Shown: positions 5,950 through 46,130, numbered from the stretch's first letter. The stretch is 64,000 nt of DNA from Verrucomicrobiia bacterium (GCA_049968335.1 JBMFQZ010000006.1:78961-142960); one strand, 5' to 3'. The notes: generated by a model from the sequence alone, not told the origin. Program-made: numbers and translations.

Positions 5950-7797
5950 ATGGAAGCCGCAAAAAATGCAGTGGAACGAAAAAGTTTAGAACAGCGGGAG
6001 AAGATGAGCGAGATTGAACGGCTCCGCCATTCTGCCGCTCACATTATGGCAGCAGCAGTGTTAAGATTGTGGCCTAATGCCAAATTAGATATTGGTCCGG
6101 CAACAGAAGAGGGGTTTTATTATGATTTTGACCTGCCTGACCATCGGTTCACACCGGATGATTTTCCGAAGATTGAAGAGGAGATGCGCAAAATTGTTAA
6201 GGAGAATCACCGCTTTGAAAAATTTGTCAAGACCCGCGAGGAGGCAAAGGCGCTTCTGGAACAAAAGGGACAGACATATAAGATTGACAGGTTGAACGAT
6301 ATTCCAGAAGGCGAGCCAATCTCATTTTATCAGAGCGGCGAGTTTGTTGACCTTTGCGCCGGACCGCATGTGATGCGAACAGGAAACGTGAAGGCGTTTA
6401 AACTCCTGCGCGTTGCCGCCGCATACTATCGCGGGAACGAAAAAAATCCGCAACTTCAGCGAATTTACGGCACAGCTTTTCCGACAAAGGCTGAACTTGA
6501 AGAATGGCTTAAGGCTCAAGAGGAGGCTAAAAAACGGGACCACCGCAGGATCGGAAAGGAAATGCAGATATTTCTCTTTGACGATGATGTTGGACCTGGG
6601 CTTCCGTTGTGGATGCCTAATGGGGCGGTGATTGCTGAAGAACTCGAAAAACTGGCAAAAGAGACCGAGTTTCTCGCCGGCTATGTTCGCGTTCGCACGC
6701 CGCATCTGGCAAAAGAGTCAATGTATCTTACCAGCGGTCATTTGCCGTATTACGCCGAGAGTATGTTTCCGCCGATGGAGTTGAAGGAATACGATGAAAA
6801 CGGTCAGGTTAAATCGGTTGAAAAATATTATTTAAAAGCGATGAACTGCCCTCATCATCATAAAATATTCGCTGCTGTCCCGCGCAGTTATCGCGACTTG
6901 CCTTTGCGGCTGGCTGAATATGGCACCTGTTATAGATACGAAAAAAGCGGCGAATTAATGGGGCTAATGCGGGTAAGGTCTATGCAGATGAACGACGCCC
7001 ATATTTACTGCACACCGGAGCAATTTGCGGATGAATTCAAGGCGGTAAATGAGATGTATTTGAAATATTTCAAAATTTTCGGGTTTAAGAAATATCTGAT
7101 GCGCTTCAGCACGCACGATCCGTCGCGGTTGGGGCAAAAGTATGTGAATGAACCGGAGCTGTGGCTCAAAACTGAGGAAATGGTGCGAAAGGTTTTGAAC
7201 GATTCTGGCATTGAGTATGTTGAAGTTCCAAATGAAGCCGCGTTTTACGGTCCAAAAATTGATGTTCAAATCTGGAGCATTAGCGGCAGAGAGTTTACTA
7301 TTGCCACAAATCAGGTGGACTTTGCTGTTCCACGCCGATTCGGGCTTGTTTATCGGGACAAAGACAATACTGACAAGACTCCTATTGTAATTCACCGCGC
7401 GCCGCTGGGAACTCACGAACGGTTTATTGGATTTTTGATTGAGCATTACGCCGGCAATTTCCCTCTCTGGCTCGCGCCTGAACAGGTTCGCGTGCTTCCT
7501 GTTACCGAAAACCAGATACAGTATGCCGAAGAGATTGTTAAACAGTTGAGATCAAATCTTGTTCGGGCAACCATTGAATTTAGCAACGATAAGTTGCAGG
7601 GCAGAATATTGCGCGCCGAAGAAGCCCGCGCCGGCATAATGTTAATAGTCGGACAGCGGGAGCAACAGGCAGGCACAGTTGCTGTCAGAATTCATACTAA
7701 AGGCGATCAGGGGGCGCATCCGCTCCCGGTGGTGATTGACACGATTCTGAACGCCATCAAAGAAAGAACGCCGGAAGTGGTTTTGAAAAAGAGTTAA
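5950..7797 (+). CDS. thrS: Threonine--tRNA ligase lacking the N-terminal TGS domain
   Basis: The editing-domain motif RHSAAHIMAAAVLRLWP sits at residues 26-42, followed by DLCAGPHV and the class II core CYRYEKSGELMGLMRVRSMQMNDAHIYC. An in-frame TAA lies 18 nt upstream of the ATG. Confidence 0.9.
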   Translation: MEAAKNAVERKSLEQREKMSEIERLRHSAAHIMAAAVLRLWPNAKLDIGPATEEGFYYDFDLPDHRFTPDDFPKIEEEMRKIVKENHRFEKFVKTREEAKALLEQKGQTYKIDRLNDIPEGEPISFYQSGEFVDLCAGPHVMRTGNVKAFKLLRVAAAYYRGNEKNPQLQRIYGTAFPTKAELEEWLKAQEEAKKRDHRRIGKEMQIFLFDDDVGPGLPLWMPNGAVIAEELEKLAKETEFLAGYVRVRTPHLAKESMYLTSGHLPYYAESMFPPMELKEYDENGQVKSVEKYYLKAMNCPHHHKIFAAVPRSYRDLPLRLAEYGTCYRYEKSGELMGLMRVRSMQMNDAHIYCTPEQFADEFKAVNEMYLKYFKIFGFKKYLMRFSTHDPSRLGQKYVNEPELWLKTEEMVRKVLNDSGIEYVEVPNEAAFYGPKIDVQIWSISGREFTIATNQVDFAVPRRFGLVYRDKDNTDKTPIVIHRAPLGTHERFIGFLIEHYAGNFPLWLAPEQVRVLPVTENQIQYAEEIVKQLRSNLVRATIEFSNDKLQGRILRAEEARAGIMLIVGQREQQAGTVAVRIHTKGDQGAHPLPVVIDTILNAIKERTPEVVLKKS

Positions 7798-7894: not shown

Positions 7895-10800
7895 ATGGCA
7901 AACCGAAAGTTATATCCTTTTGATGTAATTGAGAAAAAATGGCATAAAATCTGGGAAGAAGAACAGCCGTTTCGCGCGTGGAACCCGGGCGAGCGGATTC
8001 CCGAACAACATCCGTTCGGGAAAAGACACAATCTTGCGGGAAAGGTTGTAAGCCAGCAGGATTTGCCGCCAAAGTTTTATGTGCTTGATATGTTTCCCTA
8101 TCCAAGCGGCGCTGGTCTTCACGTTGGACATCCCGAGGGTTACACCGCAACGGATATAATCGCAAGATATAAACGCGCCCGCGGTTTTCACGTATTGCAT
8201 CCGATGGGGTGGGATGCCTTCGGTTTGCCCGCTGAACAATACGCTATCAAAACAGGACAGCATCCAAGGATAACAACCGAAAAAAATATCGCAAACTTCC
8301 GCAGACAGATAAAAGCGCTCGGTTTTAGTTACGACTGGTCTCGCGAGATTGATACCACCGACCCGAAATATTACAAATGGACTCAATGGATATTTTTGCA
8401 GTTGTATAACTCCTGGTTCAATCCTGAAACCAATAAAGCCGAACCGATATCAACCTTAAAATATCCGCCGGAATTAAAAACCGAAGAAGAACGGCGAGCC
8501 TACCGCGATAGCAAGCGGCTTGCGTATGTGGCGGAGATGCCCGTCTGGTGGTGCGAGGAATTGGGGACAGTGCTTGCAAACGAAGAGGTCATTGATGGCA
8601 AGAGCGAGGTTGGCGGTTTTCCAGTTGTTCGCAAGCCGATGAGACAATGGATGTTGCGAATAACCGCGTATGCCGAGAGATTATTGAAAGACCTTGATAC
8701 AATTGAATGGAGCGAATCGCTCAAAGAGATGCAGCGGAACTGGATCGGCAGGAGCGAAGGGGCAGAAGTTGTATTTGAAGTAGTTGATGACGGCGCGTTG
8801 AAACTTTCATCTGAAGAGCGAAAAATCACGGTATTTACAACCAGACCGGACACATTGTTTGGCGCGACCTATATGGTTCTGGCGCCTGAACATAAACTGG
8901 TTGATAAAATCATCCCTCCCCACTGGCCTGAAGGGACGCCAGAACTATGGAAAGGGGCTGACCCGGCATCAACATCAACCCCGGCGCAGGCTGTCAGGGC
9001 ATATAAGGCTTACGCGGCGTCAAAAAGCGACCTTGAAAGAACAGAACTTTCAAAAGAAAAAACAGGCGTCTTTACCGGTTCCTACGCGATAAATCCTGTC
9101 AATGGCGAAAAAATCCCCATCTGGATTGCCGATTATGTTCTTGCCACTTACGGGACAGGCGCAATTATGGCGGTACCAGCGCACGACACACGCGACCTTG
9201 AATTTGCAAAAAAATTCAACCTTCCTATTCGTGTGGTTGTGCAACCAGCGGATAGTAAAGTTGACCCGATAGGATTTGTTGACGACGGCATCAGCGTCAA
9301 TTCTGGCTTGATAAGCGGTCTGCCGACACCGCAGGCAAAACAAAAAATCATTCAATGGCTTGAACAACAGGGCAAAGGAAAGAAAACTATCAATTACAAA
9401 CTCCGCGACTGGCTATTTAGCAGACAACGTTACTGGGGCGAACCGTTCCCGATAATCTGGAAAGACGGCAAACACGAGCCGCTACCGGAGAGTGAATTGC
9501 CGCTTGTTCCGCCGCCGCTTGACGATTATAAACCGACGCCGAATGGAGACCCGCCGCTTGCGCGCGCAAAAGATTGGGTTAATCTGCCGGATGGTTCAAA
9601 ACGGGAGACAAATACTATGCCGCAATGGGCGGGAAGTTGCTGGTATTATTTGAGATATCTTGATGCCAGTAACGACAAACAATTTTGCAGCCCGCAATCC
9701 GAGCAATACTGGATGGACGGGGCAAATTGTCAGGGCAAGGGAAAGGTTTGTCCGGGCGTTGACCTGTATGTTGGCGGCACAGAACACGCAGTTCTGCACC
9801 TGCTTTACGCCCGATTCTGGCATAAAGTCCTTTATGACCTTGGCTTCGTCTCTACGCCGGAGCCGTTTTATAAACTTGTCAACCAGGGACTAATTCTTGG
9901 CGAAACCGAATACACGCTCTTCACCTATCCGGACGGCTCTTATTGCAGCGCGTCGGAATTGCGCGATATATCCGAAGAGGCTACCCCGCGCGGTCCGGTT
10001 ATGATCGGATATCATAAGGTTACCGGCGAGAAACTTTACGGTAAAAAAATCAGCGAAGACCATGTGGAAAAGTCCGCAGACGGTTTTGTTTTAAAAACAG
10101 ATAAATCGATAAAGGTTGACGCGCGCAGTTTTAAGATGAGCAAGAGCCGCGGCAACGTTATAAACCCCGACACTGTTCTTGCCGAGTATGGCGCCGACGC
10201 GTTCCGTTTATATGAAATGTTTATGGGACCGCTCGAAATGGTTAAACCGTGGAGCACCCGCGGCGTGGAAGGCGTTTATAGGTTCTTAGGTCGCGTCTGG
10301 AGATTGTTCATTGATGAAAAAAGTTATATTGAGTTTGAACAATCTCTAACAGCGAATCCGGATAAAGCCGAAGAGTTGCTAAAAAACTTGAAACTCTCTG
10401 ATTCTATTAAAAACATTGAACCTGACCAGCAACAACTGAAAGTCCTGCACACCTGCATTAAAAAGGTAACCGAAGATTTAGAAGGTATGCGGTTCAACAC
10501 AGCCATCTCGGCGCTGATGGTATTTATTAACGAGGCAAGCGCTTGGGAGGTTAAACCGGTCTCGGTGTTGCGCGATTTCTTAATCTTGCTCCAGCCGTTT
10601 GCCCCGCATATCGCGGAAGAATTGTGGGATAAATTGCTATCTCAAGCGGGAATGAAACCGGCTATTGAAGCCGTTGCCCTTTGTTATCAACCCTGGCTTG
10701 ATTACGACCCGCAGATGCTTGTGGAAAACACAATGGAAATCCCGGTTCAGGTCAACGGCAAACTGCGCGATGTAATCAAAATTGACGCAAACGCCTCACA

Positions 10801-15740: not shown

Positions 15741-17123
15741 TCAATTTTTTATCTTTTGAGAAAGTGGAATGAGGAGTTCAAATCTTGTTCCGGTTGCGGA
15801 GGTGGATTTTAATTGAAGCGTGGCGCCTAAGTGGCTGGCAAGATGTTTTGATATTGCAAGTCCGATTCCGCTGCCGCCCGGTTTTGTTGAATGACAGGGG
15901 GAGAATAGATTTTTTAAAACTTTTTCGGGAATTCCGCAGCCTTCATCTATGACCTCGCAAACAAGCGAACCATTGTTTACAGAGATTGTCAGTTTTACAG
16001 ATTTCCCAGAGGGAGTTGCGTGGACGGCGTTTTCAATTAGATTAGTTAAGATCAAGCAGACAAGATTTGCGACACGATTGGAGAGGTCTGCGTTTCCATT
16101 AGATTCAATAATCAGGTTAATTCCCTTTTCTTTCGCTAACAGCGCGGTTTTGTTTTGAATCATCTCGCGCAATTCAGGAAGAGTGATTTCATATTCTATT
16201 GCGCCGCTCTCTTCTTTCAGCAGATTGACTACTTCGTTTATCATTGATTTGATGCGATTAATGGATTTGACGGCGCTTTGAAAGTCGGTTGTGTCGCCGT
16301 TTAATCCGGCTTTATCGGCGGCAAACAGTTCAAGTCCTGTTAGCGGGCTTTTTAGACCGTGAATAAGGTGCGCGGCAACAGCGCCTATGGCAGAAGCGCG
16401 GGCTGCCATTGCCAGTTCTTGGTTTGCGCGCCGCAGGTCTTCGGTTCTCTGTTCTAATTTGTAAAAGGCGTAACCGACTCCTAATATAATCAAAACCGAC
16501 CCTATTCCGAACGCAACAAGCGCTTGCAGATTTAAATTATTTTCTAAAATGGCGAATTGGCTTGCAATCCCCGACCCTTCAATAACAAACTGCGCCACCG
16601 CGGCAAGATTAGTATCGCTTCTGCCGTGCAATGGAATATTCACAACCAGCAGAGACTGCGCGTTAATCTTTCCTTTATAAGAATCTGGCAAATAATAAAA
16701 GAGTTCGTTCAATCCAATCTCTTTATAAAAACGGGCATTTGGTTTTAATGTTTTTAAAAGGTTCAACTCTTTTTCATCAAGTTTTCCCTCCTTAACATTT
16801 ACCGGCAGCGCTGTGATAAAACCGCCATCGGCGTCATAGAGCCGGACCGCGATAACGCCGCGGAGGTTTGAAGCCCGCAAAATCAAGGTCAGCTGTTCTG
16901 ATGGATCATTGATATCAACTTGCTGGTCGGTTGAACTGTCCCTCAATAAACAGATTGCGGAATATAGGATTTCCGCGTCCCGATTTATTATCTGTGCTCG
17001 AATTGCGTTGCCGAGTTTTAACCTTGCAAGAAATACCGTTGCGCCAAGCACCGCCACCGAGAGCAATATTGCCAGTAGCGGCGTTAATCGTTTGAAAGTC
17101 TCTTTTTTAAACAACGACTTCAT
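15741..17123 (-). CDS. Sensor histidine kinase (no cognate response regulator adjacent)
   Basis: It has two TM segments, an H box AAHLIHGLKSPLTGL, an N box LTNLIENAVHAT and G boxes DEGCGIP / GGSGIGLAISKHL. Confidence 0.85.
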   Translation of the reverse strand: MKSLFKKETFKRLTPLLAILLSVAVLGATVFLARLKLGNAIRAQIINRDAEILYSAICLLRDSSTDQQVDINDPSEQLTLILRASNLRGVIAVRLYDADGGFITALPVNVKEGKLDEKELNLLKTLKPNARFYKEIGLNELFYYLPDSYKGKINAQSLLVVNIPLHGRSDTNLAAVAQFVIEGSGIASQFAILENNLNLQALVAFGIGSVLIILGVGYAFYKLEQRTEDLRRANQELAMAARASAIGAVAAHLIHGLKSPLTGLELFAADKAGLNGDTTDFQSAVKSINRIKSMINEVVNLLKEESGAIEYEITLPELREMIQNKTALLAKEKGINLIIESNGNADLSNRVANLVCLILTNLIENAVHATPSGKSVKLTISVNNGSLVCEVIDEGCGIPEKVLKNLFSPCHSTKPGGSGIGLAISKHLASHLGATLQLKSTSATGTRFELLIPLSQKIKN

Positions 17124-37600: not shown

Positions 37601-38256
37601 GTCCGGGCGGCGCCGCATTTACATTTTTGCAGAAGATTGGTCTGGTTGAGAAGTCTATGGTTCTGAACAACCAGAGGCTTATTGACGGTTCAGTTTTCAA
37701 TCCGCAAAAGGTTTCTGCGGCAGTCTATCTTGATGGCGAGGATTATGTTCATACGGTTAGAAATACCGCCGATGGGGCGAACGCCGTTGAACAATTTGTT
37801 AAAGGAGGCGGCACGCTTGTTCTGCTTGCCTCGCAGCCATGGCCGATGTTTTACGCCACAGGCGGCGGCGGCAGGCGGAGCGAGGCGCTCACCGGGAAAC
37901 TTGGACTGTCGTTGTCTATGGCAGTTGAAGGTTTGCCATCAGAAAAATTGACAATCAAGATTAATACCCAGCAAAATATTATCAGATGCAAAAACGCGCA
38001 ATTCGGGTATCCAGAGGGGGACGGGAGGTTGCGGGCGATTTTAAGAAACCGAATACCAAAGGAGGCAAAATATACTCCGATTGCAACGGTGGTTGGAGAG
38101 TCGGGCAAGGATTACGGCGATGCCGCAGGTTTAATTGAATTTCCTAACGGTGGCAGGGTTCTATATATTGCCAGCGTGTTGCAACTTGACCCGATTAACG
38201 GTTTTGAAATTCGCCGCAGCGTAGCGGAATATTTGATAAAACTGAGCGGTAAATAA
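34678..38256 (+). CDS. Large secreted hypothetical protein (~1190 aa)
   Basis: This is an uninterrupted ORF with a signal peptide (MNGKFAKVVNIVVLNAFIFSAFSAISQE). Its last 76 codons are duplicated at 45835-46064. Confidence 0.75.
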   Translation: MNIFKMNGKFAKVVNIVVLNAFIFSAFSAISQEINNGLVTVRAVKKGNSFSGFDVLKGSTNIAIIRFSSETVGLTVTKCSTVRGGDAIEFSGFQARSGAGVVFGKEDFVRVRLIRNDPYPEIAFGITIAEFDSAKWQTVVGKEPFHFLALYLKDAETWHHRGWLNATPLVDPFPLLLDRHAGTPEISAYHYNRNWSYTVPLGAHPIPVIGLWSASKAHYVGYEFQTTRLENNSERDIATGYRWIGDESGSPDSKQFVALVYPYGGQGYQQLVLPETGSRLNSKCRLLWSLNLPSTDDPNRFTLSVIWGKTMDKLPRVPAVADVDWIPGGIRLKDFQGPPRGGLIAGVEPPFQVQGTRLISGWTWHNESPTAAAAKQKDSQRIAALKNIASELMKYAKRFQINGEECLFWEKPLEGEWTEQWGGKPVTTLHNANGFAAARVFLGLYRDAGMKEYLPVVDGVLNWAKYIEWTRNEFADVPSSPFAIGGTLSASFCLEYYKTFKDSPDDEHRKRASLALELARVFTYRYLAIWLSDNNRFDNLDSSFLWEPNSGRDWTGAACANEVFWNLDTLAQTAVHTGDPILMWALQGSLDRWHQLYQDVVKNSLLEYQARDMTEGYGLYAGNVYGVGKRAPYGFASPLVMTEPVGDSFIRVLAGEKAALAFKKGKQQVNISQYKYKQEGNFAFTVQSERGVFDLSLTSPYCDISEKSVSIAREGKKIVLQPGSDFIRPPQALWSLYLKNVRNGDRIIVGEPDETAPSLPTEPPLAYSSAQKQPLSNYETVNGFGLVQLPYDSAPDFSWENPQGWAGMPRGRIWVFGVPFNIEYSNDRCVLSRPAKLSRQIKNADFVYLLYSEGEGEVPSLVYSDGAKELVDTSSEAIAFKAHPPIFKGRLFIGKVAVKKGKSIQSIDPAKRMVWAMTVQTLSDIPAEDAARVNLALTKAAEEWKIQRAQELIMSELSEKVKTVSEGKIAILPPSPGGAAFTFLQKIGLVEKSMVLNNQRLIDGSVFNPQKVSAAVYLDGEDYVHTVRNTADGANAVEQFVKGGGTLVLLASQPWPMFYATGGGGRRSEALTGKLGLSLSMAVEGLPSEKLTIKINTQQNIIRCKNAQFGYPEGDGRLRAILRNRIPKEAKYTPIATVVGESGKDYGDAAGLIEFPNGGRVLYIASVLQLDPINGFEIRRSVAEYLIKLSGK

Positions 38257-38322
38257 TTTATTGATTAATCCAGTGGCGTTCTTTTGTCGCGGTAAAAAGA
38301 CGCGCTGCCGTCGAGCATCACC
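38027..38322 (+). repeat. Left copy of the ~296-bp direct repeat bracketing the insertion
   Basis: Positions 38027-38219 are identical to 45835-46027. Similarity with scattered substitutions continues to ~38322/46130. Confidence 0.95.
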
Positions 38323-38363
38323 GCTACGGCTCGATGGAAAAGTTTTGGGAAACGAGCCTGCAT
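38265..38363 (-). pseudogene. Chimeric 32-codon ORF: junction ATG fused to a decayed copy of the prepilin-like gene tail
   Basis: The hand translation is [32 protein letters not shown]. The last 18 residues match the C-terminus of the 46073 gene ([17 protein letters not shown]). Confidence 0.6.
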
Positions 38364-38450
38364 TTTTCACACACTCCGCGCCTTTTCCAGCCGCGCCCGC
38401 ACCAGCCCTACCACCGCCTCATACACCGCCTCCCGCTCACCTGGCGTCAA
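38361..38450 (-). repeat. Copy 3 of the methyltransferase gene 3' end (mosaic fragment)
   Basis: It encodes LTPGEREAVYEAVVGLVRARLEKARSV*. Positions 38361-38406 are identical to 39082-39127, and 38410-38438 are identical to 40984-41012. Confidence 0.9.
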
Positions 38451-38485
38451 ATGTAAAGTTGAAACGGAGGGATACCTCGAGAATT

Positions 38486-39091
38486 TCATTTTCGGAAATA
38501 GGCATCAAGGGACTCACGCAGACTTCGCAGAGCATCGATGGCGTTGTCGTAGTGACTGAGCTTATATTTGCCATATTCCCATTCCTCGAGTAGAAACAGA
38601 TGTTCGCGATTGCGCCAGTCCCATAAATCGTCAAGGGCCTTTTTTAAATCATCGGAAATCATACCGTTTTTGACCATAGCGGCAGTTCGCTGTTTATAAC
38701 CCGTGTTCTTCCCGGAGATATTTCGTGCTACATCTTTGGTGATACTCTCACAGAGAGTACCGACAAGGCAAACACCCTCTTTGATAATCATTTCACGGGC
38801 AGTCCCCTTTAAGTCAATTCGATTCAACAACCATCGGTAAACATCACTAAGGATTAGTGCGTAGGAGATATTGCGTTGCAAGTTCTTGTCGTGGATAAAC
38901 CAATACTGATCCCGAAAGAACTTGGCCTTTCGCAAATATCCGCGAGGAAAACGGATTTTCAGAGGTCGATCACCCTCTCTTCCTAGAAGGTTTTCAATCT
39001 CTTGCAAATCGTTTCCGATCCGCTTAACCAGTGATTCGATTGACTTTTCCATGACGGTTTCGCACCACATCAGTTGTTCATCATTTTTCAC
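38486..39091 (-). CDS. Orphan helical protein, function unknown (possible HEPN-like effector)
   Basis: This 201-codon ORF ends the island operon. The GTG at 39091 overlaps the TGA of repeat copy 2, and alternative ATGs lie at 39070 and 39052. The WDWRNREHLF string is HEPN-like but is one residue short of Rx4-6H. Confidence 0.6.
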   Translation of the reverse strand: MKNDEQLMWCETVMEKSIESLVKRIGNDLQEIENLLGREGDRPLKIRFPRGYLRKAKFFRDQYWFIHDKNLQRNISYALILSDVYRWLLNRIDLKGTAREMIIKEGVCLVGTLCESITKDVARNISGKNTGYKQRTAAMVKNGMISDDLKKALDDLWDWRNREHLFLLEEWEYGKYKLSHYDNAIDALRSLRESLDAYFRK

Positions 39092-39205
39092 ACACTCCGC
39101 GCCTTTTCCAGCCGCGCCCGCACCAGCGTCACCACTGCCTCGTACAGTGCCTCACGTTGCCCTGGCCGCCGTTCGTACCACAGTGAAACACCAGACGTTC
39201 GAAGC
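39082..39205 (-). repeat. Copy 2 of the methyltransferase gene 3' end (diverged fragment)
   Basis: It encodes ...PGQREALYEAVVTLVRARLEKARSV* with no upstream ORF body. It lies between the OLD-type gene and the 201-aa ORF. Confidence 0.85.
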
Positions 39206-39262
39206 GAGGGTGCCCGGAAGCATTGCCACCTAGCAAGAGAGAGTGAAGTTAGGGATATCATT

Positions 39263-40930
39263 CTAACTTGCCAAGGCCTTCAGTAAGGCGGACACCTTGC
39301 TTTTGAAGTCCTTGATCTTTTCGTCTGCGACCTTACCCTGTTGTACGGCCAAGAGAACCTCGGCTGCTTTGCGCCATCGTTCCCCACTGGTTTGAATTCC
39401 GAGAAAATCCTCCAAGTTGTTTGGCAGCTTGTAGACATCCTTTGTGCAATCGTTCTTGGCCTTCTGAATGAGATTGTTAAGCTTGTCCTGCTTTTCTTTT
39501 TCGCTACCGGTCTTGTTCGCATCCTTGTCATGCAAGACAGCATGATCAATTCGGAACTCGCCCAAAAGGTTCATGAAGCGGTGGATGTTGTATTTTCCGA
39601 GTGTTTCTAAAACAAACACCCCATTGGCGTTAGAAGAAAGTTGCCCGGTCTTGAGCAGGTAGTTGATCAACACCTGTTCCGAAAGCCCTTCAACGATGAG
39701 AACGGCGTTTGCGAAGAAGAGGCTGCTTCGTTCGGGATTCAGCCACAGAAAATGGCGCACTGCTTCCAGTTCCGCCGAACCCGCCTGCACGCCGAGAATT
39801 TCCGCGATTTGCTGGTTGTCCTCAAAGATTTCCTTCAAACGGACCTTTTTGATTTGGGCAACTTCGGTCTTGCCGGCTACTCGCCGCACACGAACCAAAT
39901 CCGCGAGGTCATCGGTGTTGTAGCTGACGAACTGGGGCGAGTGCGAAGCGGCAATGACCTGACGGCCCGGTTTAGCTGCGAGTTGGCGCAAACTGGTGTC
40001 GAGCACGTCTTGTTGCGGCGGATGCAGGAACGCCTCGGGCTCTTCAAACAGTAAAAGCTCCATTTCCGGCGAGAACTCCTTTTTCTCCGACTTGGGCTTT
40101 GACGCGGTGTAGCCCGCGGCGATCCGAATCAGCGTGAAGATCAGATGCCGCTGCAAGCCATGACCAAAGGCGTCAGGGCTCATCTCGGTATTCAAGGCGC
40201 TGTCGGTCAGGGTGTAGCGAATCAGGTTCTTGATGATGTCATCAACTTGTGGCGGATTGATGCCTAGATTAAAGGAGACGCCCCACTCTTTGATTTGATC
40301 AGTGATTTTCGCCTCGAGGTCCGAAAGCGAGCGTTTGTCAGGCGTCTCCTCGTTTTTTATGTTCCAGCTAAACTTAGCGAAGTCTTCGGTCAGGGCGGTA
40401 AAGGCGTTACTCGAAGTGATGACAGGCTTTAGGATGTCGTTAATTAGATCGCGCAGCGCGCTCGGCCCTGTCAGTTTGGTGTGCTCTTCCAATCGGCTGA
40501 CAGCCGGGATGTAAATCACATTGCCAAGTTTGCCCTGAGCCACGTTTTTCCAGCCGTAGAACAAATTCTGCGACAAGCTGCCATTTTCATAACCGAAAAA
40601 ACCGGCCTTCGCTTTATCGGACGGCCACAGCCACTTGCGAACGCGGCAACGGTTTTGGCCGATCAGGTATTCTTTTTTTATGTCTGCCGCCTCTTCTTGA
40701 GACAATTCGTATTCGAGTTCCACCCAGCTTTCCTGGTCATTGGTTTGGAACTTCGGGAAATCCCGGTCTTGGTCGAACTTCAGATCTTTCTCGTAAACGG
40801 TTCGTAGAGCATCGAGGACGTTGCTCTTGCCGGAATTGTTCGGCCCGATAAGCAGCGAATAGTCGCCGAAGCGGATTGTCTGCTCAGCAATCGAACGATA
40901 GTTGTGGATTTTCAGCTCTCTGATTTTCAT
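39263..40930 (-). CDS. OLD-family ATP-dependent nuclease (ABC-type ATPase + Toprim)
   Basis: It has MKIRELKIHNYRSI, Walker A GPNNSGKSN, Walker B LLLFEEPEAFLHP and ASHSP. Toprim follows with AVLIVEGLSEQVLI and LHDKD. A GGAG lies upstream of the ATG at 40930, 10 nt after the methyltransferase stop. Confidence 0.85.
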   Translation of the reverse strand: MKIRELKIHNYRSIAEQTIRFGDYSLLIGPNNSGKSNVLDALRTVYEKDLKFDQDRDFPKFQTNDQESWVELEYELSQEEAADIKKEYLIGQNRCRVRKWLWPSDKAKAGFFGYENGSLSQNLFYGWKNVAQGKLGNVIYIPAVSRLEEHTKLTGPSALRDLINDILKPVITSSNAFTALTEDFAKFSWNIKNEETPDKRSLSDLEAKITDQIKEWGVSFNLGINPPQVDDIIKNLIRYTLTDSALNTEMSPDAFGHGLQRHLIFTLIRIAAGYTASKPKSEKKEFSPEMELLLFEEPEAFLHPPQQDVLDTSLRQLAAKPGRQVIAASHSPQFVSYNTDDLADLVRVRRVAGKTEVAQIKKVRLKEIFEDNQQIAEILGVQAGSAELEAVRHFLWLNPERSSLFFANAVLIVEGLSEQVLINYLLKTGQLSSNANGVFVLETLGKYNIHRFMNLLGEFRIDHAVLHDKDANKTGSEKEKQDKLNNLIQKAKNDCTKDVYKLPNNLEDFLGIQTSGERWRKAAEVLLAVQQGKVADEKIKDFKSKVSALLKALAS

Positions 40931-40940
40931 GTTTTGCTCC

Positions 40941-41075
40941 TCACACGCTTTGGGCTTTTTCGAGGCGGGCGCGGACCAGCCCGACCACCGCCTCATACAC
41001 CGCCTCCCGCTCCCCGGCCGTCAAGCCCAACACATCAAACACCACTTCGTCCAAGGCGAAGCGGTCAGGTGATGC
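40941..41075 (-). repeat. Copy 1 (functional) of the triplicated methyltransferase 3' end
   Basis: It encodes ...FDVLGLTAGEREAVYEAVVGLVRARLEKAQSV* and is the reference for the fragments at 39082-39205 and 38361-38450. Confidence 0.9.
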
Positions 41076-44000
41076 TTGTCGCACTCGGTCTAAAGAAGCG
41101 GCAGAAGGGATGATATGTTCGTAGGGGTGGTTCACATGCGAACAGTGCAGCTCTTTGCACAGCGGAAATCCCAGCTCTTCAAAAACTGTGCGAACAACGC
41201 GCTTGGATAAAGCTTCAAACGCATCAATTAGGCGACTTATTGTTTGCAGGGTGAGATCGGTTGGGTCAATAACCGGGAATAGACCCACATCCGGGCCATT
41301 CACTGAAACTGCGCCAAGCCCCCAAGGCACGTTCCCGATGAGCTCATTCAATCCCGCCGCCACCGTTGAGTTGCAGAAAGCACCGATCACGGCCTTGTGT
41401 TCTTTTGTGTGGAAAATGATTTTATAGAACTTTTGCCCATAAACCCTGCCCAACACGATAGGAACAAAAAAACGAGCGCCTACCATTCGTGGGTATAGCA
41501 AATCACCGAGTTGGCGTGAGTTGCCGGTTGACTTAACTCCGAAGAACACCACGCCAGGGCTATTCTCTGTAAGGCGCATGGTCGAAAGCGAATCAATGCT
41601 GTCAACGAAAGGCACGGAGGGGAATCTCGGCCCGATATTGTTGCCGTGGATGTACCCCTCGATTCTCGCAAATAATCGCAAGGGTTTTAATTTTGGCAAC
41701 ACGTGCGTCATCAGGATGTCCGGAGCGCGCAGGTATTTGCCGCCCCATTTGTTGGCTTCGTAACGAGCGGTTTTGATGAACGGGGTGCGCGGTTTCTTGC
41801 CGGCCGACGCGGGTTCGTCGTCGTCTTCCTCGCGGGCGAGGCCTTCCTCGAACAGGTCGCGTTGGGGTCGGACGCAGATTCGCCAGCGGTCGGTGCTCTG
41901 GCGTTCGGCGGCGGACTCCAGCCTCTTGAAGGTGGCGGCGTCGAGCACGTCCTCGAACGGGACTTTGAACATAACAAAGCGGGCGGTCTGGTCGAGGCCG
42001 CTCTCGCGGCGGTCGTCGGGCGGTGCAAGCAGGGCGATGATCGTGTTGACATCAGCCTGGGCAAAGGAGCGTTTCCGTTCGTTGTCGAGGATGAACTTGA
42101 CGTGGCTGTGTTTGAGGAGGAACTCCTGCAGGTCTGCGCCGTAGCCGACATCGAGCCAGGAGTTGGAGGTGATGAAGCAGAAGCTTCCGCGCTCAGTCAG
42201 CAACGCCAGCCCGTGCAGGTAGAAGTAGATGTAGAGGTCGCTCTGACCGTCCAGTTTTCGATAATTGGCAGAGCTCGGCTTATACCGGAAAAACTTGGGC
42301 CACGCAGCAGCAACGGACTGAGCAAGTTTTGCTTTATAATCCGCCTTTTGTTCCTTCCATCGCGGGGCGTCTTCGCCGCCGTAGTCCTCAGGATTTTTGT
42401 CCGGCGGGGCGATCTTCTCTTTTCGGACATAGGGCGGGTTGCCGATGACGATGTCGAAGCCGGCCTTGTCGCCCTCGAAGATTTCCACAAAGGCGATGTC
42501 CCAGACGAACGGGACTTGTTGGGTGGTGCGCAGCGCCTGCAGGGCTTGTTCGATGCGGTTGAGTTCGGCTTGGCGCTCGGCGCGTTCGGCGCGCCATCCT
42601 TCTTCGAGGCGGAGACGTTCCTGTTTGGCCTGGCCGGGGGCGATGCCGGCCAGTTCGCCCTGTTCCACGCGCGATTCGATTTGATGGGTGAGCGCGGCGA
42701 TGGATTTCTGGAGGGCGAGGCGTTTGTGCGTGAGGATGTCGTGGAAGATGTCGAGTTCTTCCTTTTTGAGGTCGGCTTCGCGGAGGCCGGATTCGCCTTG
42801 GTAGAAGCGGAGTTTTTTGCCTTTGAGCTGGGTGAGTCGGCCTTTGAGTGAGGCAGGAATGTCGAGGTGGTCGCGGTGGAGACCGAGGTTGATGCCGCCG
42901 ATTTCCTGCACGAGGCTGTCGCCGCAGCGGACTTTGAAGGAGAGATTGGGCAGGAGCGGGCGAAATTTTAGTTCCGCAGCTTGGAGCTCGGTTTCTACGA
43001 CCAGTTGCAGCCAGAGGCGCAGTTCGGTGACGTGGATTGCCCAGTCCATCACGTCCACGCCGTAGAGTTGTTCGCCGATAATGCGGCGGCGGCGTTCGTA
43101 GGGGGTTTCTTCGAGGCCGAGTTGGGCGTTGGCGCGGGCTTGGAGGTCGTCGAGCACCAGCAACATGCCGACGAGGAACGAGCCGGAGCCGCAAGCGGGG
43201 TCGCAGACGGTGGTTTCGCGCAGGAGACGGTTGAGGTCGGGCCAGAGGTTTTGGGCAGCGAGCGCGCGGTCGGCGGCTTCTTTGTTGGCGGGGTCGTAAG
43301 CGAAGACGGCGTCGTAGAGCAGCGGTTTTTTGTCCTGGCCAAGCCGGTTGGCGAGGGTGTCGGTAAGGCTGAGGCGGCACATCAGGTCAATTTCGACGCG
43401 CGGGGTGTAGAAGATGCCGGCCGAGCCGCGCAGGTCGTCTTCGGTGAGTCCCTCGAAGGTGATGTTGACGAGGGATTCATAGACTTTGCCGATCATTTCG
43501 GGGTCAACGGCGACCTCGATGTCCAGCGGGGTAGATTCGGCGATGGTGAAGTTGTAGCGTTCGAGGAAGCCGGGGCTGCTTCCGTCAAAGGAATCGAAGA
43601 GGGTGGTAAAAAACTCGTCCGGCAGTTTCGCGTCGTAGGCGTCGTCGAGTTTGTTTTGGGTGAACAAGCCGCCGTTGAGAAACGGGGCTTGAGCGAGGGC
43701 GTGGCGGATGGGGTCGGGGAAATGGCGGTGTCCGCCGTGGAACTTGTTGTTGAACGCCTCGAAGAACAGGACGGAGAGCCAGCGGTCGAAAAAGGTGTCC
43801 TTGGGCTGGTCTGAGTTTTTGTAGGCGCGCCAGAATTCGGCGATGAAGTTCGGATTGTTGACGAGCCAGCGCTTGCGCTGGATGAAGTAAAGGAACATCA
43901 GGCGGTTGAGCAGTTGCAGGGCGTAATCGTGCGCCCAGATTTTGTCGCGGGAGGCATTGGTCAGGTGGGCTTGTAGGTTGGCAAAGACCTTCTTGTAGTC

Positions 44001-44537
44001 GTCGAAGAACCGTTTGGTGACTGCTTCGACATCGAAGGCTCGGTTGAGTTTGTCGGTTAGGGTGGTGATGAGTGGTTCGCCTTGTTCAAGTTCATCGAGG
44101 CTGAAGGCGAGTTCGCCCAGTCGCTCGATAGTGGTGCGGGCGGGAGAGCCGACCTCGTAGGGGAGGGTGCGGAGTTCGATCTTTTCGTCGGGCCGCTGAC
44201 GCGCCCAGGTGAAGGCGGCTTGTCGCTGGTCGGAGGTCACATAGCAGAGGAGATGTTCGGCATGGAGGGGTTTGAGGGCACGCTGAACCACGCGGCGGGC
44301 TGTGACACCGGGAAATTTCTTCTCTGGCCAATCTATGCGATATACCGGAAGACCCGAAAGTTGTGCCACCGGATGGAGGGTGAGGAGCCCGCTTACCGGC
44401 GTTCCGACTTCGAGAGTTCGCGACGTCATACCCCGCGGCGCACCCCAGTTGAGGGTCTGGCAGAAAAGCTCCCCCAGGTTTTCCGCCAAATTGCCGCCGG
44501 TCAATTGGGCTTCGATTTGTTGAAGAATCGTGTTCAT
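40941..44537 (-). CDS. Eco57I/PglX-like gamma-class N6-adenine DNA methyltransferase with a C-terminal specificity region (1198 aa)
   Basis: Motifs are GIFYTPR, motif I VCDPACGSGSFLVGML, LYGVDVMDWAIHVTELRLWL, motif IV FDIVIGNPPYVRKE and KWGGKYLRAPDI. The N-terminal region has LLNRLMFLYFIQRKRWL...FLNGGLF. I saw no clear PD-(D/E)xK motif. Confidence 0.85.
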   Translation of the reverse strand: MNTILQQIEAQLTGGNLAENLGELFCQTLNWGAPRGMTSRTLEVGTPVSGLLTLHPVAQLSGLPVYRIDWPEKKFPGVTARRVVQRALKPLHAEHLLCYVTSDQRQAAFTWARQRPDEKIELRTLPYEVGSPARTTIERLGELAFSLDELEQGEPLITTLTDKLNRAFDVEAVTKRFFDDYKKVFANLQAHLTNASRDKIWAHDYALQLLNRLMFLYFIQRKRWLVNNPNFIAEFWRAYKNSDQPKDTFFDRWLSVLFFEAFNNKFHGGHRHFPDPIRHALAQAPFLNGGLFTQNKLDDAYDAKLPDEFFTTLFDSFDGSSPGFLERYNFTIAESTPLDIEVAVDPEMIGKVYESLVNITFEGLTEDDLRGSAGIFYTPRVEIDLMCRLSLTDTLANRLGQDKKPLLYDAVFAYDPANKEAADRALAAQNLWPDLNRLLRETTVCDPACGSGSFLVGMLLVLDDLQARANAQLGLEETPYERRRRIIGEQLYGVDVMDWAIHVTELRLWLQLVVETELQAAELKFRPLLPNLSFKVRCGDSLVQEIGGINLGLHRDHLDIPASLKGRLTQLKGKKLRFYQGESGLREADLKKEELDIFHDILTHKRLALQKSIAALTHQIESRVEQGELAGIAPGQAKQERLRLEEGWRAERAERQAELNRIEQALQALRTTQQVPFVWDIAFVEIFEGDKAGFDIVIGNPPYVRKEKIAPPDKNPEDYGGEDAPRWKEQKADYKAKLAQSVAAAWPKFFRYKPSSANYRKLDGQSDLYIYFYLHGLALLTERGSFCFITSNSWLDVGYGADLQEFLLKHSHVKFILDNERKRSFAQADVNTIIALLAPPDDRRESGLDQTARFVMFKVPFEDVLDAATFKRLESAAERQSTDRWRICVRPQRDLFEEGLAREEDDDEPASAGKKPRTPFIKTARYEANKWGGKYLRAPDILMTHVLPKLKPLRLFARIEGYIHGNNIGPRFPSVPFVDSIDSLSTMRLTENSPGVVFFGVKSTGNSRQLGDLLYPRMVGARFFVPIVLGRVYGQKFYKIIFHTKEHKAVIGAFCNSTVAAGLNELIGNVPWGLGAVSVNGPDVGLFPVIDPTDLTLQTISRLIDAFEALSKRVVRTVFEELGFPLCKELHCSHVNHPYEHIIPSAASLDRVRQASPDRFALDEVVFDVLGLTAGEREAVYEAVVGLVRARLEKAQSV

Positions 44538-45271
44538 GGCCGTTCCTCAGTCATTGCTGTGGACGAAAAACTCGAAGATGCCGCCACTAATCCCATTGAG
44601 CAAATGATACGGGGTTCGGAGCGACTGGTATCGTCTTCGTCTGTCACTTCACAGAGGTTTTCATCTATTGCCCGGCGCAATACAAGTTCAAGCAGCGCTT
44701 CGTCGGTGATGCCCAGGCGCATCTGCCTGTTGACGGCATCTTGCGCGGCGCGCTTGAGCGGGTATCGCCAGATCAGGTTGAGCACAGAGTCGATCTGTTT
44801 CAAGGTTTCTGGGGTGAAGAGCGTGGGGTTAACCTGAAACCGCTCGCGGTAGCGTTTGAGACGATCGTAGAGTTTCCGGCGCATGCTTCGGAGCGAGCCT
44901 AGCTGGCCGCCTAAGGCAGTCTGCTCCTCGGTGGCAATTTCTACGCAACGGGCGACAAGGTTGTGATGGTTCTCTGCCCGCGGCAGCGGCGGGGTGTTCG
45001 GGGCGCACGCGGCGGCGCGGAAGATGGCGGATATAAACTTGGAAACCAGGTTACCCCGCTCATCCACTCGCACAAGCGCAACGGCGCCGTCTGGGTAGCG
45101 CAAGTAAGTAAGCACCACGGGCGGGTTGTTGACGTGCTCCTTGTCCCGATGATCGTAGGATTCGGTCGGGCGCTTATTCTGATTGGTTTGCGTTTTTCTC
45201 TTGCGTGCAGTCAATTCACACCACCCGCTCCTTGTTGGCGTAAACAAGTTCGTATTCCTTCTTGGCGTCAA
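44534..45271 (-). CDS. Hypothetical protein translationally coupled to the methyltransferase (start uncertain)
   Basis: The G+C-rich ORF stops in an ATGA overlap with the methyltransferase start (44534-44537). Its first ~19 codons overlap a 48-codon ORF in another frame. A TTG at 45214 sits 1 nt after that ORF's TGA. Confidence 0.55.
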   Translation of the reverse strand: MTPRRNTNLFTPTRSGWCELTARKRKTQTNQNKRPTESYDHRDKEHVNNPPVVLTYLRYPDGAVALVRVDERGNLVSKFISAIFRAAACAPNTPPLPRAENHHNLVARCVEIATEEQTALGGQLGSLRSMRRKLYDRLKRYRERFQVNPTLFTPETLKQIDSVLNLIWRYPLKRAAQDAVNRQMRLGITDEALLELVLRRAIDENLCEVTDEDDTSRSEPRIICSMGLVAASSSFSSTAMTEERP

Positions 45272-45362
45272 AGAGGATCACCTTGGAGTCCTCCGGTAAG
45301 GGCTTGCCTTCCCTGAGGAGACTTACAATACGTTCAATTTCTTGCTCTGAAAGTTTACGCAT
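45216..45362 (-). CDS. 48-aa ORF resembling the extreme N-terminus of Mod-type adenine methyltransferases (possible gene remnant)
   Basis: The hand translation is MRKLSEQEIERIVSLLREGKPLPEDSKVILFDAKKEYELVYANKERVV*. The LL..GK.LP......LF...KEYELVYAGKE leader is remembered from type III-like Mod proteins. It is absent from the supplied track because it is under 60 aa. Confidence 0.4.
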   Translation of the reverse strand: MRKLSEQEIERIVSLLREGKPLPEDSKVILFDAKKEYELVYANKERVV

Positions 45363-45402: not shown

Positions 45403-45519
45403 CTAATCCTGGATGATGGACACGATAGAGGCGTTCTGGGTCTGCTTCTGAATTTCCAGGGCTGTCTCCTTCAGGAAGAAATGCTGCTCCTCGGTAATCT
45501 CAGTGGTTGTCTTTCTCAT
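45403..45519 (-). CDS. Small (38 aa) ribbon-helix-helix-like protein, putative operon regulator
   Basis: The sequence is MRKTTTEITEEQHFFLKETALEIQKQTQNASIVSIIQD. A GGGAG lies 9 nt upstream of the ATG at 45519. It is the first ORF of the island operon, and the fold assignment is tentative. Confidence 0.35.
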   Translation of the reverse strand: MRKTTTEITEEQHFFLKETALEIQKQTQNASIVSIIQD

Positions 45520-45834
45520 AATCGTTTTACTCCCGGTTTTTAAAGCACGGTTTCTCGGTCTAACTATATCGTTATAATTTTGAATATAGCCACATAAAGT
45601 CAAGGTGAATTTTGCCGCCTCTCTCACCTTTTGTCGATACCCTTAATCTCGCCTATTAGTAGCGGGGCAATGTCTCTGTCTCCGTTCCTGCCAAGCGAAT
45701 TCTCCGGGCTGGGCGGCTCGGATCAAAGCCCTTATATCTACTTTGGAGGCGCAAGGACTTTTTATTTCTACGAGGAGACATTCTCCGTTTGCTTTCCGAT
45801 TATCTTCCGTAGTGGAACCACTTGAGTGGCGCAC

Positions 45835-46064
45835 GGTTGCGGGCGATTTTAAGAAACCGAATACCAAAGGAGGCAAAATATACTCCGATTGCAACGGTGG
45901 TTGGAGAGTCGGGCAAGGATTACGGCGATGCCGCAGGTTTAATTGAATTTCCTAACGGTGGCAGGGTTCTATATATTGCCAGCGTGTTGCAACTTGACCC
46001 GATTAACGGTTTTGAAATTCGCCGCAGTATAGCGGAATATCTGATAAAACTGAGCGGTAAATAA
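45835..46064 (+). pseudogene. Headless duplicate of the last 76 codons of the 34678..38256 gene
   Basis: RLRAILRNRIPKEAKYTPIATVVGESGKDYGDAAGLIEFPNGGRVLYIASVLQLDPINGFEIRRSIAEYLIKLSGK* differs from the intact gene end by one residue (V to I). The ORF-track entry 45822..46064 only adds 4 unrelated codons. Confidence 0.9.
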
Positions 46065-46130
46065 TTTATTGATTAATCCATTGGCGTTCTTTTGTCGCGG
46101 TAGAAATTTGCGCTGCCGTCCAGCATCGTT
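45835..46130 (+). repeat. Right copy of the ~296-bp direct repeat bracketing the insertion
   Basis: See 38027-38322; the offset is 7808 bp. Confidence 0.95.

Follow-up and report, generated by a model that had tools for sequence, protein, structure and literature searches.

Repeated ends of a methyltransferase gene as probable footprints of successive defence-gene cassette insertions in a Verrucomicrobiia island

The stretch of DNA analysed here, referred to below as the window, comprises 64,000 nucleotides (nt) from a Verrucomicrobiia bacterium (GCA_049968335.1, JBMFQZ010000006.1:78961-142960) and contains an island of about 7.5 kb which carries a DNA methyltransferase gene, a gene of the OLD family and a gene for a protein of 201 amino acids (aa). 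The last 90-135 nt of the methyltransferase gene are present three times as direct repeats, namely at the gene's own 3' end, behind the OLD gene and behind the 201-aa gene; all three copies lie on the minus strand and share the reading ...VYEAVV.LVRARLEKA.SV*. In this work the structure of these copies (termed tails, and orphan tails where they stand apart from the gene), their recurrence in other genomes and their possible origin were analysed. Single loci used for comparison are cited by their L numbers. The features concerned are the following.

38361-38406, minus strand: 3' part of copy 3, 46 nt the same as in copy 2 (mismatch search, alignments)
38407-38456, minus strand: 5' part of copy 3, a tail piece travelling with the 201-aa cassette (comparison with Pyrinomonas locus L162)
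38486-39070, minus strand: putative cassette 2, a protein of 194-201 aa from a conserved family with a predicted HEPN-like fold (homologues, AlphaFold, Foldseek)
39082-39205, minus strand: copy 2, orphan tail 3' of OLD (repeat search, alignment, tail hidden Markov model)
39263-40930, minus strand: putative cassette 1, an OLD-family ATPase/TOPRIM nuclease of 555 aa (Pfam, PADLOC, L168 homologue)
40941-41078, minus strand: copy 1, the true end of the methyltransferase gene (tail hidden Markov model, 89.9 bits)
40941-44537, minus strand: intact gene for a 1198-aa Eco57I/PglX-like gamma-class N6-adenine DNA methyltransferase (Pfam, PADLOC, homologues)

A repeat search returned a single direct-repeat family of 85 nt, with members at 38361-38445 (the reference), 39082-39166 (87%) and 40935-41019 (78%), and a hidden Markov model (HMM) of the tail scored the three copies at 51.8, 37.5 and 89.9 bits, the last value being that of copy 1. 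Together with the reading frames these results bear out the original prediction, made from the sequence alone, that the gene end occurs three times. The junctions are likewise as it described them: the TGA of copy 1 (40943-40941) is separated by GGAGCAAAAC from the ATG of OLD, and the TGA of copy 2 (39090-39088) and that of copy 3 (38369-38367) are each followed by AAA and then ATG. The junction between copy 1 and OLD is kept in L168, L170, L172 and L173. Copy 2 is homologous to the orphan 3' of OLD in L168, and its 5' start is common to L168 and L172. It is a tail copy over the predicted extent of 39082-39205, although good preservation is confined to 39088-39166, the 5' third (~39167-39205) being degenerate with an indel.

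Copy 3 is composite. Its stop-proximal 46 nt (38361-38406) are identical to 39082-39127 in copy 2, a 46-mer with just two occurrences in the window at up to three mismatches (0 expected by chance), and 29 nt further into the copy (38410-38438) are identical to 40984-41012 in copy 1; both identities had been predicted and proved exact. Compared with copy 2, the 5' segment of copy 3 shows 11 mismatches in 39 positions and the 3' segment 0 in 43 (Fisher p = 1.2e-4); compared with copy 1, the respective values are 4/39 and 12/43 (p = 0.054). These alignments support a mosaic, with a crossover near 38406-38413 and a 3' part that would be either resident or converted. The predicted recombinant nature of copy 3 is strengthened by a breakpoint that also appears in the Pyrinomonas comparison (see below), but its parents need not be copies 1 and 2. 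The 29-mer common to copies 1 and 3 recurs with no more than one mismatch in 5 of 111 other main tails and is near the subfamily consensus; copy 1 itself is therefore not demonstrated as a parent, and the proposal of a direct recombinant between copies 1 and 2 is weakened. Behind copy 3 the ATG starts a 32-codon open reading frame (ORF; 38265-38363, minus strand) that enters a duplicated 3' fragment of a 283-aa host gene and is probably a meaningless fusion.

Both genes that follow the methyltransferase were found in other genomes together with tail pieces on either side. Window positions 41054 to 39088 align with positions 5174 to 7135 of L168 at 83% identity over 1977 nt; this block begins at the conserved tail start and runs through OLD and the spacer between OLD and the orphan, its last position falling precisely on the TGA of the orphan. 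The L168 contig, likewise from Verrucomicrobiia, lacks the methyltransferase gene, so that even its upstream tail is an orphan, and its OLD homologue is 88% identical with the same tail pieces on both flanks. Window positions 39111 to 38413 match positions 7940 to 8653 of L162 at 81% identity. This locus, a graveyard of restriction-modification fragments, belongs to the cultured acidobacterium Pyrinomonas methylaliphatogenes, and L163, an independent assembly of the same reads, is concordant. The 198-aa gene of Pyrinomonas has an orphan tail ahead of it with a matching junction (GTGTGTAAAAAATTGATGAACAACTAAG against GTGTGTGAAAAATGATGAACAACTGATG) and another behind it with a matching 5' boundary (CAACTTTACCTTTGACCGCTGG against CAACTTTACATTTGACGCCAGG). 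Midway through copy 3 the homology breaks off, at the place where the crossover had been predicted: in its 3' part the Pyrinomonas orphan has the copy-1 type of sequence, and the window is identical to copy 2 there. In L172 (Sumerlaeia) a 30-nt tail stump, OLD and a 5' tail piece are found beside the host gene cutA1 and far from any methyltransferase, which is a permuted form of the cassette. The order in L170 is helicase-nuclease, methyltransferase, tail, OLD, a 72-aa gene, an orphan, a RAYT-like gene and a 5' tail piece. From the arrangements in these four loci it follows that the cassette consists of a 3' tail piece, a gene and a 5' tail piece, and this is the look of a circle with one tail which has been integrated by a crossover in a resident tail. 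This sharing of units with both flanks across phyla is the strongest evidence for tail recombination.

The recurrence of orphan tails was addressed in 160 loci encoding relatives of the methyltransferase, gathered from genome and metagenome collections, of which 112 include the end of the gene. Orphans were present in 13 of these 112 loci (18 fragments, all on the strand of the gene), and when each tail was compared by blastn with its own downstream 8 kb there were 40 matches on the plus strand and 1 on the minus strand. Comparison of the whole methyltransferase with its own flanks (tblastn) gave credible fragments of at most 50 residues, every one of them from the extreme C-terminus, and no other part of the gene was found as a fragment in the locus flanks. 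The orphans are 42-135 nt long and all truncated at the 5' end, with starts at HMM positions 2-32 of 46; nearly all reach the stop codon, and their homology to the real tail ends 0-8 nt past it. They begin some 0-120 nt past the stop of the preceding cassette gene. In 12 of 16 cases no more than ~40 nt separate the stop of the orphan from the next gene; the distance in the remaining four is 73-193 nt. The orphans contain frameshifts, internal stops and deletions, and are scars and not coding sequence. They are commoner in operons with the methyltransferase gene in last place (6/27 loci against 2/57).

Several individual loci deserve mention. In L027 (Poribacteria) an orphan with 20 nt of flank (6823-6902) lies 3 kb upstream of the methyltransferase gene, ahead of three other genes, and shares 85% identity with its downstream counterpart at 16247-16326; the two therefore bracket a 9.4-kb segment which includes the methyltransferase gene. 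When the Poribacteria loci L021, L027 and L071 were aligned they were found to share a cassette-plus-orphan block, for which vertical descent is also a possible explanation. An orphan tail after Mrr_N in L168 (962-1096) holds a palindromic insert of ~30 nt, GCCTGCCTGCCGAAGCCTCGGCGCAGGCAGG, within the tail sequence. In L130 (13496-13773) a very divergent main tail is followed by 84 nt without a gene and then by a consensus-like orphan which leads straight into a 1366-aa gene; here the 3' region of the gene looks to have been replaced, with an illegitimate right-hand joint inside the old tail. There is also a second type of orphan gene end, '...EREIDQLVYRLYGLTPEEIKIVEE*' (VYRLYGLTPEEIKIVEE, YRLYGLTPEEIKIVEE), which brackets cassettes such as DUF3800 and abuts the methyltransferase tail type.

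L168: 1150-1230, 4040-4146, 5050-5152 and 7190-7260; L081: ~15746; L085: ~15267; array strand: second tail type (five copies, short ORFs)

The motif of this second type stands at the C-terminus of a different methyltransferase or type IIG family, and scars of this kind may occur in more than one methyltransferase family.

The region behind the tail is a hotspot of gene content. Clustering of the downstream ORFs showed dozens of unrelated families, often shuffled, in the interval from the methyltransferase gene to either the helicase gene or the locus end. The variability 3' of the conserved tail is high, and the original prediction had named its absence as a finding that would count against it. 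Among the cassette families are ImmA/IrrE with DUF4411, Mrr_N, DUF3800 and OLD-like nucleases (Pfam and distant tblastn matches), to which AlbA_2-like, VapBC-like, RelE/ParE-like, TcmP with DUF5131-like and RAYT-like genes can be added by eye from their N-termini only. The gene that follows an orphan belongs in 7 of 16 cases to a cluster found directly behind a real tail elsewhere, which takes in every one of the seven clusters present at two or more loci; among other second-to-fifth genes the background rate is 25/243. L068 (main tail, GTGTAGCCATGCGGGACTGGCAATGG) and L124 (orphan, GTGTAGACATGCAGGACTGGCAATGG) have near-equal junctions into the same gene, and in L124 two other genes lie between the real tail and this orphan. 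With a single tail in L068, tail-insert-tail in L124 and the same gene after both, these loci make an approximate empty/occupied pair. The counts and this junction indicate that new cassettes enter beside the methyltransferase gene and that the former tail-plus-gene is pushed downstream. No variant of the island itself that is missing one cassette was found, the closest methyltransferase homologue being 80% identical over 79% of its length.

Taken together, the three copies probably record a series of events in which accessory defence-gene cassettes were inserted, one after another, within the final ~45-135 nt of the methyltransferase gene, and the predicted entry of cassettes at this 3' end gains support from the recurrence of orphans, the downstream variability and the shared units. 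Each cassette would consist of the 3' part of a tail through the stop, one or more genes and a 5'-truncated tail start, i.e., a circularly permuted tail. A crossover between the cassette's tail and the resident tail, with either a circle (in the Campbell manner) or a linear fragment ('ends-in') as substrate, would place the cassette directly behind an intact methyltransferase gene. In doing so it would rebuild a complete tail on that gene and leave a 5'-truncated orphan before the former neighbour, older cassettes being displaced downstream. OLD and the 201-aa HEPN-like gene would be two such cassettes, and copy 3 would be a hybrid right-hand product with a cassette-borne 5' part and a 3' part of the resident type. 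The methyltransferase tail is the only homology at the DNA level beside a highly variable region. We infer a homologous crossover (of the RecA type or on short homology) for which no dedicated recombinase is needed, and a circular intermediate, and further that recombination between the direct repeats can release cassettes again, an idea of the original prediction that is in keeping with the shuffling of cassettes between genomes. Insertion-duplication within the tail accounts for the direct orientation of the copies, for the intact gene end after each insertion, and for a 3' limit at the stop codon, where the family-wide homology ends. It likewise accounts for a variable 5' limit, set by the start of each cassette's own tail piece, for a minimum orphan size of 42-51 nt, for the hybrid copy 3 and for the order of displacement. 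No integrase or transposase was found in the island by Pfam (methyltransferase, OLD, 201-aa gene and the remnant of a helicase gene described below), nor by PADLOC or NCBIfam for the same four genes and two small ORFs at the right end.

A number of observations weigh against this interpretation. Main and orphan tails are often just 70-90% identical, which is low for RecA-type recombination unless the divergence came later. Most cassette-bearing loci have no detectable orphan; in these either the scars have decayed or other routes were taken, e.g., a double crossover between the methyltransferase and helicase genes. Tail pieces also occur without a homologous resident tail: the orphan of L130 is 84 nt past a very different main tail, pieces of the second tail family abut the methyltransferase tail type in L168 and L081, and the cassette of L172 lies beside cutA1. 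Since these pieces lack a homologous partner, at least some of the steps must have been illegitimate. The origin of the first joint between a cassette end and a tail is unexplained by the model. Furthermore, genes for RAYT/IS200-like Y1 transposases (MRYDPEKHHRRSIRLKGYDYS...) lie directly 3' of tails in L028, L082, L114, L073 (11823-12062) and L170, and could be passengers or the real agents of cassette movement; the RAYT-like gene of L170 (10084-10695) is followed by a perfect hairpin, GGTAGGGGCACGGCATGCCGTGCCCCTAC, at 10693-10720, and the methyltransferase P0032 has a fused PF01797 domain.

These transposase genes, the hairpin and the P0032 fusion are what speaks for an enzyme-catalysed, site-specific movement, in which the tail, or a short site within it, would be the attachment site of an enzyme encoded elsewhere, either a recombinase or a HUH (Y1) transposase, and the cassettes would behave like integron cassettes or passengers of the IS200/IS605 type; the cassettes beside non-homologous DNA in L172 and next to the second tail family in L168 point the same way. 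We nevertheless regard it as unlikely. Orphans start at many positions of the tail, as the range of HMM positions shows, and on the 3' side they stop where homology across the family does, rather than at a fixed core site; no hairpin or inverted repeat is conserved in the tails, RAYT-like genes are present in few arrays, and the searches of the island named above found no recombinase gene. That each cassette once had a full methyltransferase of its own, so that deletions in tandem systems left the 3' stumps behind, seems quite unlikely to us even though decay is real at this locus, where the helicase-nuclease gene has been cut to its last 190 codons. The fragment-filled Pyrinomonas locus and a second member of the methyltransferase family on the window's own contig (P0092) fit such a history as well. 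Some 20 orphans, however, are all at most 46 codons long and there is no fragment of the 3.4-kb conserved body, nor any room for a piece of the recognition domain; random end points would fall within the last 135 nt only ~4% of the time. Moreover, gene-to-stump junctions are common to different phyla, and the 5' and 3' parts of a stump can differ in history.

A stump might also be kept as a functional cis element, for a promoter, translational coupling or RNA structure, which would concern selection and not the mechanism of origin. Orphans, like the real tail, do usually have the next gene starting no more than ~40 nt past their stop, and a role in translation initiation is possible. The original prediction had itself named a structured RNA or terminator as the finding that would count against recombination, and neither gained support. 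An Rfam search of the tail copies gave no family match, their folding z-scores (-0.08, -0.08 and +0.59) are those of shuffled sequence, and a consensus scan gave 3 matches where chance alone would give 4.7. A single one of them, terminator-like, touches a copy (41065-41041, towards the 5' side of copy 1), and neither promoter-like nor terminator-like matches were obtained in copies 2 and 3. On these grounds an RNA structure or terminator was rejected. With orphans that vary from 42 to 135 nt and contain frameshifts, internal stops and deletions, and with copy 3 standing ahead of no real gene, we consider maintenance as a cis element very unlikely. Finally, the window comes from a metagenome-assembled genome, in which strain variants could have been threaded serially through a shared k-mer node. 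Such an artefact is practically excluded because an isolate genome (Pyrinomonas, L162), the independent assembly of its reads (L163) and chromosome-level assemblies (L021, L071) agree on the same architecture, which was also seen in more than a dozen unrelated projects; the tail copies differ in sequence, so they are not collapsed repeats.

If cassette insertion at the methyltransferase tail is accepted, a wider proposal can be made, which we offer tentatively and hold to be possible rather than probable. The methyltransferase 3' end would then be a universal docking site that needs no integrase, a recombination-driven counterpart of the integron platform, and cassettes with a split tail would circulate, in the form of small circles or fragments, among distantly related members of one community, plug in behind any member of the family and stack into arrays. 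Docking may extend to other methyltransferase families, given the second tail type '...VYRLYGLTPEEIKIVEE*' in L168, L081 and L085.

The methyltransferase itself is matched in Pfam by Eco57I (104 bits) and MmeI_Mtase and in PADLOC by type IIG models. More than 7,500 members of the family were detected; full-length homologues have 63-66% identity, and many more have 75-80% over 79% of the length. Relatives differ in the target-recognition region, and the variable part directly precedes the C-terminal tail, which is nearly invariant across phyla (...PDRRALDEVVFDVLGLTAGEREAVYEAVVNLVRARLEKARSV*). In relatives the partner is an HKD(PLD)-SNF2 helicase-nuclease of ~1110-1150 aa, whose gene lies on the upstream side of the methyltransferase gene in 27 loci and on the downstream side in 57, and the core system is a two-gene module of this helicase-nuclease and the Eco57I/PglX-like methyltransferase. 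Of the partner the window retains a remnant.

44534-45124, minus strand: remnant of the helicase-nuclease gene, the last ~190 codons (72% identity to residues 958-1137 of the L081 protein)

The intact gene in L081 encodes 1146 aa upstream of the methyltransferase, and the remnant is homologous also at the DNA level to L170 and L081. The restriction half of the system is thus deleted in the window, and as only ~190 codons of the partner are left, the methyltransferase is a solitary survivor with trailing effector genes. The second family member mentioned above, P0092 (1247 aa, 59% identity), is encoded outside the window on the same contig of 190,593 nt.

Assignment of the core system to BREX, DISARM or MANTIS was rejected, with NCBIfam and PADLOC scores far under the cut-offs and the wrong gene content. 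A type 1 BREX locus is recognised by BREX_1_MTaseX reaching its cut-off together with adjacent brxA/B/C, pglZ and brxL; here this NCBIfam model scored 41.3 bits against a cut-off of 500, and PglZ and BrxC are not present, so that the protein does not qualify as a BREX type 1 PglX. MANTIS (Gao_RL) has four genes, MtsA (DUF499 AAA+), MtsB, MtsC (an alpha-class methyltransferase) and MtsD (a PLD-helicase), as against a gamma-class methyltransferase and just two core genes here.

The OLD protein has the family architecture of an N-terminal ABC-type ATPase and a C-terminal TOPRIM domain, with Pfam matches to AAA_15 (1.6e-30, 107 bits; cut-off 32) and OLD-like_TOPRIM (3.8e-15, 56.6 bits; cut-off 23.2) and a match to the PADLOC model Old (2.6e-61). 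The 201-aa protein has 55 homologues in a family of ~193 aa that is tied to restriction-modification loci; the gene lies directly 3' of hsdS in L164/L165 and inside a decayed type I locus in Pyrinomonas. Sequence searches of Pfam, PADLOC, NCBIfam, solved structures and PHROGs gave no match for it. Its AlphaFold model, a confident one (predicted local distance difference test, pLDDT, 86), looks HEPN-like: the best Foldseek matches were YutE (1ylm) and HEPN toxins, all weak (E = 1.6e-3 to 1e-2, template modelling score, TM, 0.44-0.61). R160 and H164 are invariant in the family, with a spacing of R-x3-H as compared with R-x(4-6)-H in the motif that goes with the four-helix HEPN fold. The measured G+C content falls from 58.5% in the methyltransferase gene (centre 61%) to 51.3% in OLD and 44.8% in the 201-aa gene, host genes being at 45-48%; the gradient that had been predicted from hand counts is real, although those counts were too high.

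The ends of the island are marked by a longer duplication.

38027-38319, no strand assigned: left 293-nt direct repeat flanking the island (repeat search; 97% identity, first 166 nt identical)
45216-45362 and 45403-45627, minus strand: two small ORFs of 48 and 74 aa (38 aa from ATG) at the right end of the island, 47% G+C
45835-46127, no strand assigned: right 293-nt direct repeat flanking the island (repeat search)

The repeat contains the convergent 3' ends of a host gene of 1198 aa and of the 283-aa host gene, which is of the prepilin type (N_methyl). The likeness that had been drawn between the tail copies and the island ends holds, in that this 293-nt direct duplication has the same signature at a larger scale. 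The two small ORFs have no family assignment save a weak PHROG match, and show no relation to what precedes the helicase gene in L170 and L081.

How defence islands gain and reshuffle genes without an integrase or transposase is largely unexplained, and tail recombination would be one concrete and testable route. A short conserved coding segment beside a hypervariable region could act as a portable homology arm by which single defence genes are added, stacked, displaced and probably lost while the methyltransferase gene ahead of them stays constant, and by which they pass from one phylum to another. Candidates for cargo moved in this way are OLD, the HEPN-like protein, the VapBC-like and RelE/ParE-like pairs recognised by eye, ImmA with DUF4411, and Mrr_N. 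Tail scars might also be of use as a tool, as genes between tail fragments would be candidate defence genes of unknown function. The cultured P. methylaliphatogenes holds a bracketed cassette, which makes the proposed circles open to a search at the bench.

Among known systems the arrangement is analogous to Rhs arrays and to the orphan cdiA-CT/cdiI modules in loci for contact-dependent inhibition (CDI). For Rhs a model of C-terminal displacement has been put forward, with homologous recombination and a circular intermediate (Jackson et al., 2009; PMC2935791), and the permuted tail on the present cassettes would lend indirect support to a similar circular route. The two have in common a conserved 3' anchor with variable modules behind it, displaced modules in the same orientation that follow 5'-truncated anchor fragments of variable length, and a newest module which adjoins the main gene (as suggested here by 7/16 against 25/243 and by L068/L124). 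They differ in that the modules described here are separate genes with their own start codons past the stop, not in-frame C-terminal tips, and in that the anchor is just ~45-135 nt of a methyltransferase gene and the cargo is made up of anti-phage and toxin-antitoxin genes. Unlike Rhs modules, these cassettes are shared across phyla and their arrays persist without the main gene (L168, L162).

An 'insertion with long target duplication' of restriction-modification gene units was reportedly described by Nobusato and co-workers in 2000. The repeats produced by such insertions measure 46-423 bp, and the inserts have no mobility gene, are flanked by direct repeats derived from the target and are often situated at the 3' end of a gene (Furuta, Abe, Kobayashi 2010; PMC2853133). 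The 293-nt repeat around the ~7.5-kb island and the 42-135-nt tail repeats around cassettes of 0.7-1.9 kb are alike in this respect, and both the island and the cassettes are inserts of less than 20 kb flanked by direct repeats of more than 30 bp, the limits used in that study. It also looked for R and M genes without a mobility gene; in the island M is intact and R is present as a remnant only, and the cassettes are not restriction-modification genes. A further mark of such insertions is a lone copy of the repeat at the empty site of a related genome, to which L068 and L124 come near in the case of the cassettes. Insertions of that kind are single events of whole units at unrelated targets, whereas here the same tail has been reused in many lineages and the inserts are accessory genes inside a restriction-modification locus.

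Integrons resemble the present arrays in their one-directional, promoterless cassettes of one or two genes, a split recombination site, the newest cassette at the platform and a circular intermediate, but here there is no IntI, attI or hairpin-forming attC, and the repeat is a coding fragment with clear homology in sequence and of variable length. Membership among integrons was rejected, since no integrase match was obtained in the island (Pfam, PADLOC, NCBIfam) and the tails fold no better than shuffled sequences. Tandem integrative elements at the 3' ends of tRNA or protein genes encode an integrase and use a fixed core site. As in our case their insertion restores the 3' end of the gene and leaves displaced 3' fragments in direct orientation, but neither an integrase nor a fixed core site is seen here. 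Accessory defence genes are also embedded in BREX, type I restriction-modification and DISARM loci. Such loci are the subject of reviews (PMC12707154, PMC12839542), and they too have variable defence genes between or after the conserved genes of a methylation-based system, as do the 57 related loci with cassettes between the methyltransferase and helicase-nuclease genes. The literature searched held no description of repeated methyltransferase 3'-end fragments that delimit embedded genes, or of tail-bracketed cassettes. The geometry is that of Rhs/CDI displacement arrays and also that of long-target-duplication insertions. What is new with respect to the known systems is the methyltransferase tail as anchor, the stand-alone defence and toxin cargo, the sharing of cassettes across phyla, and arrays which outlive the anchor gene.

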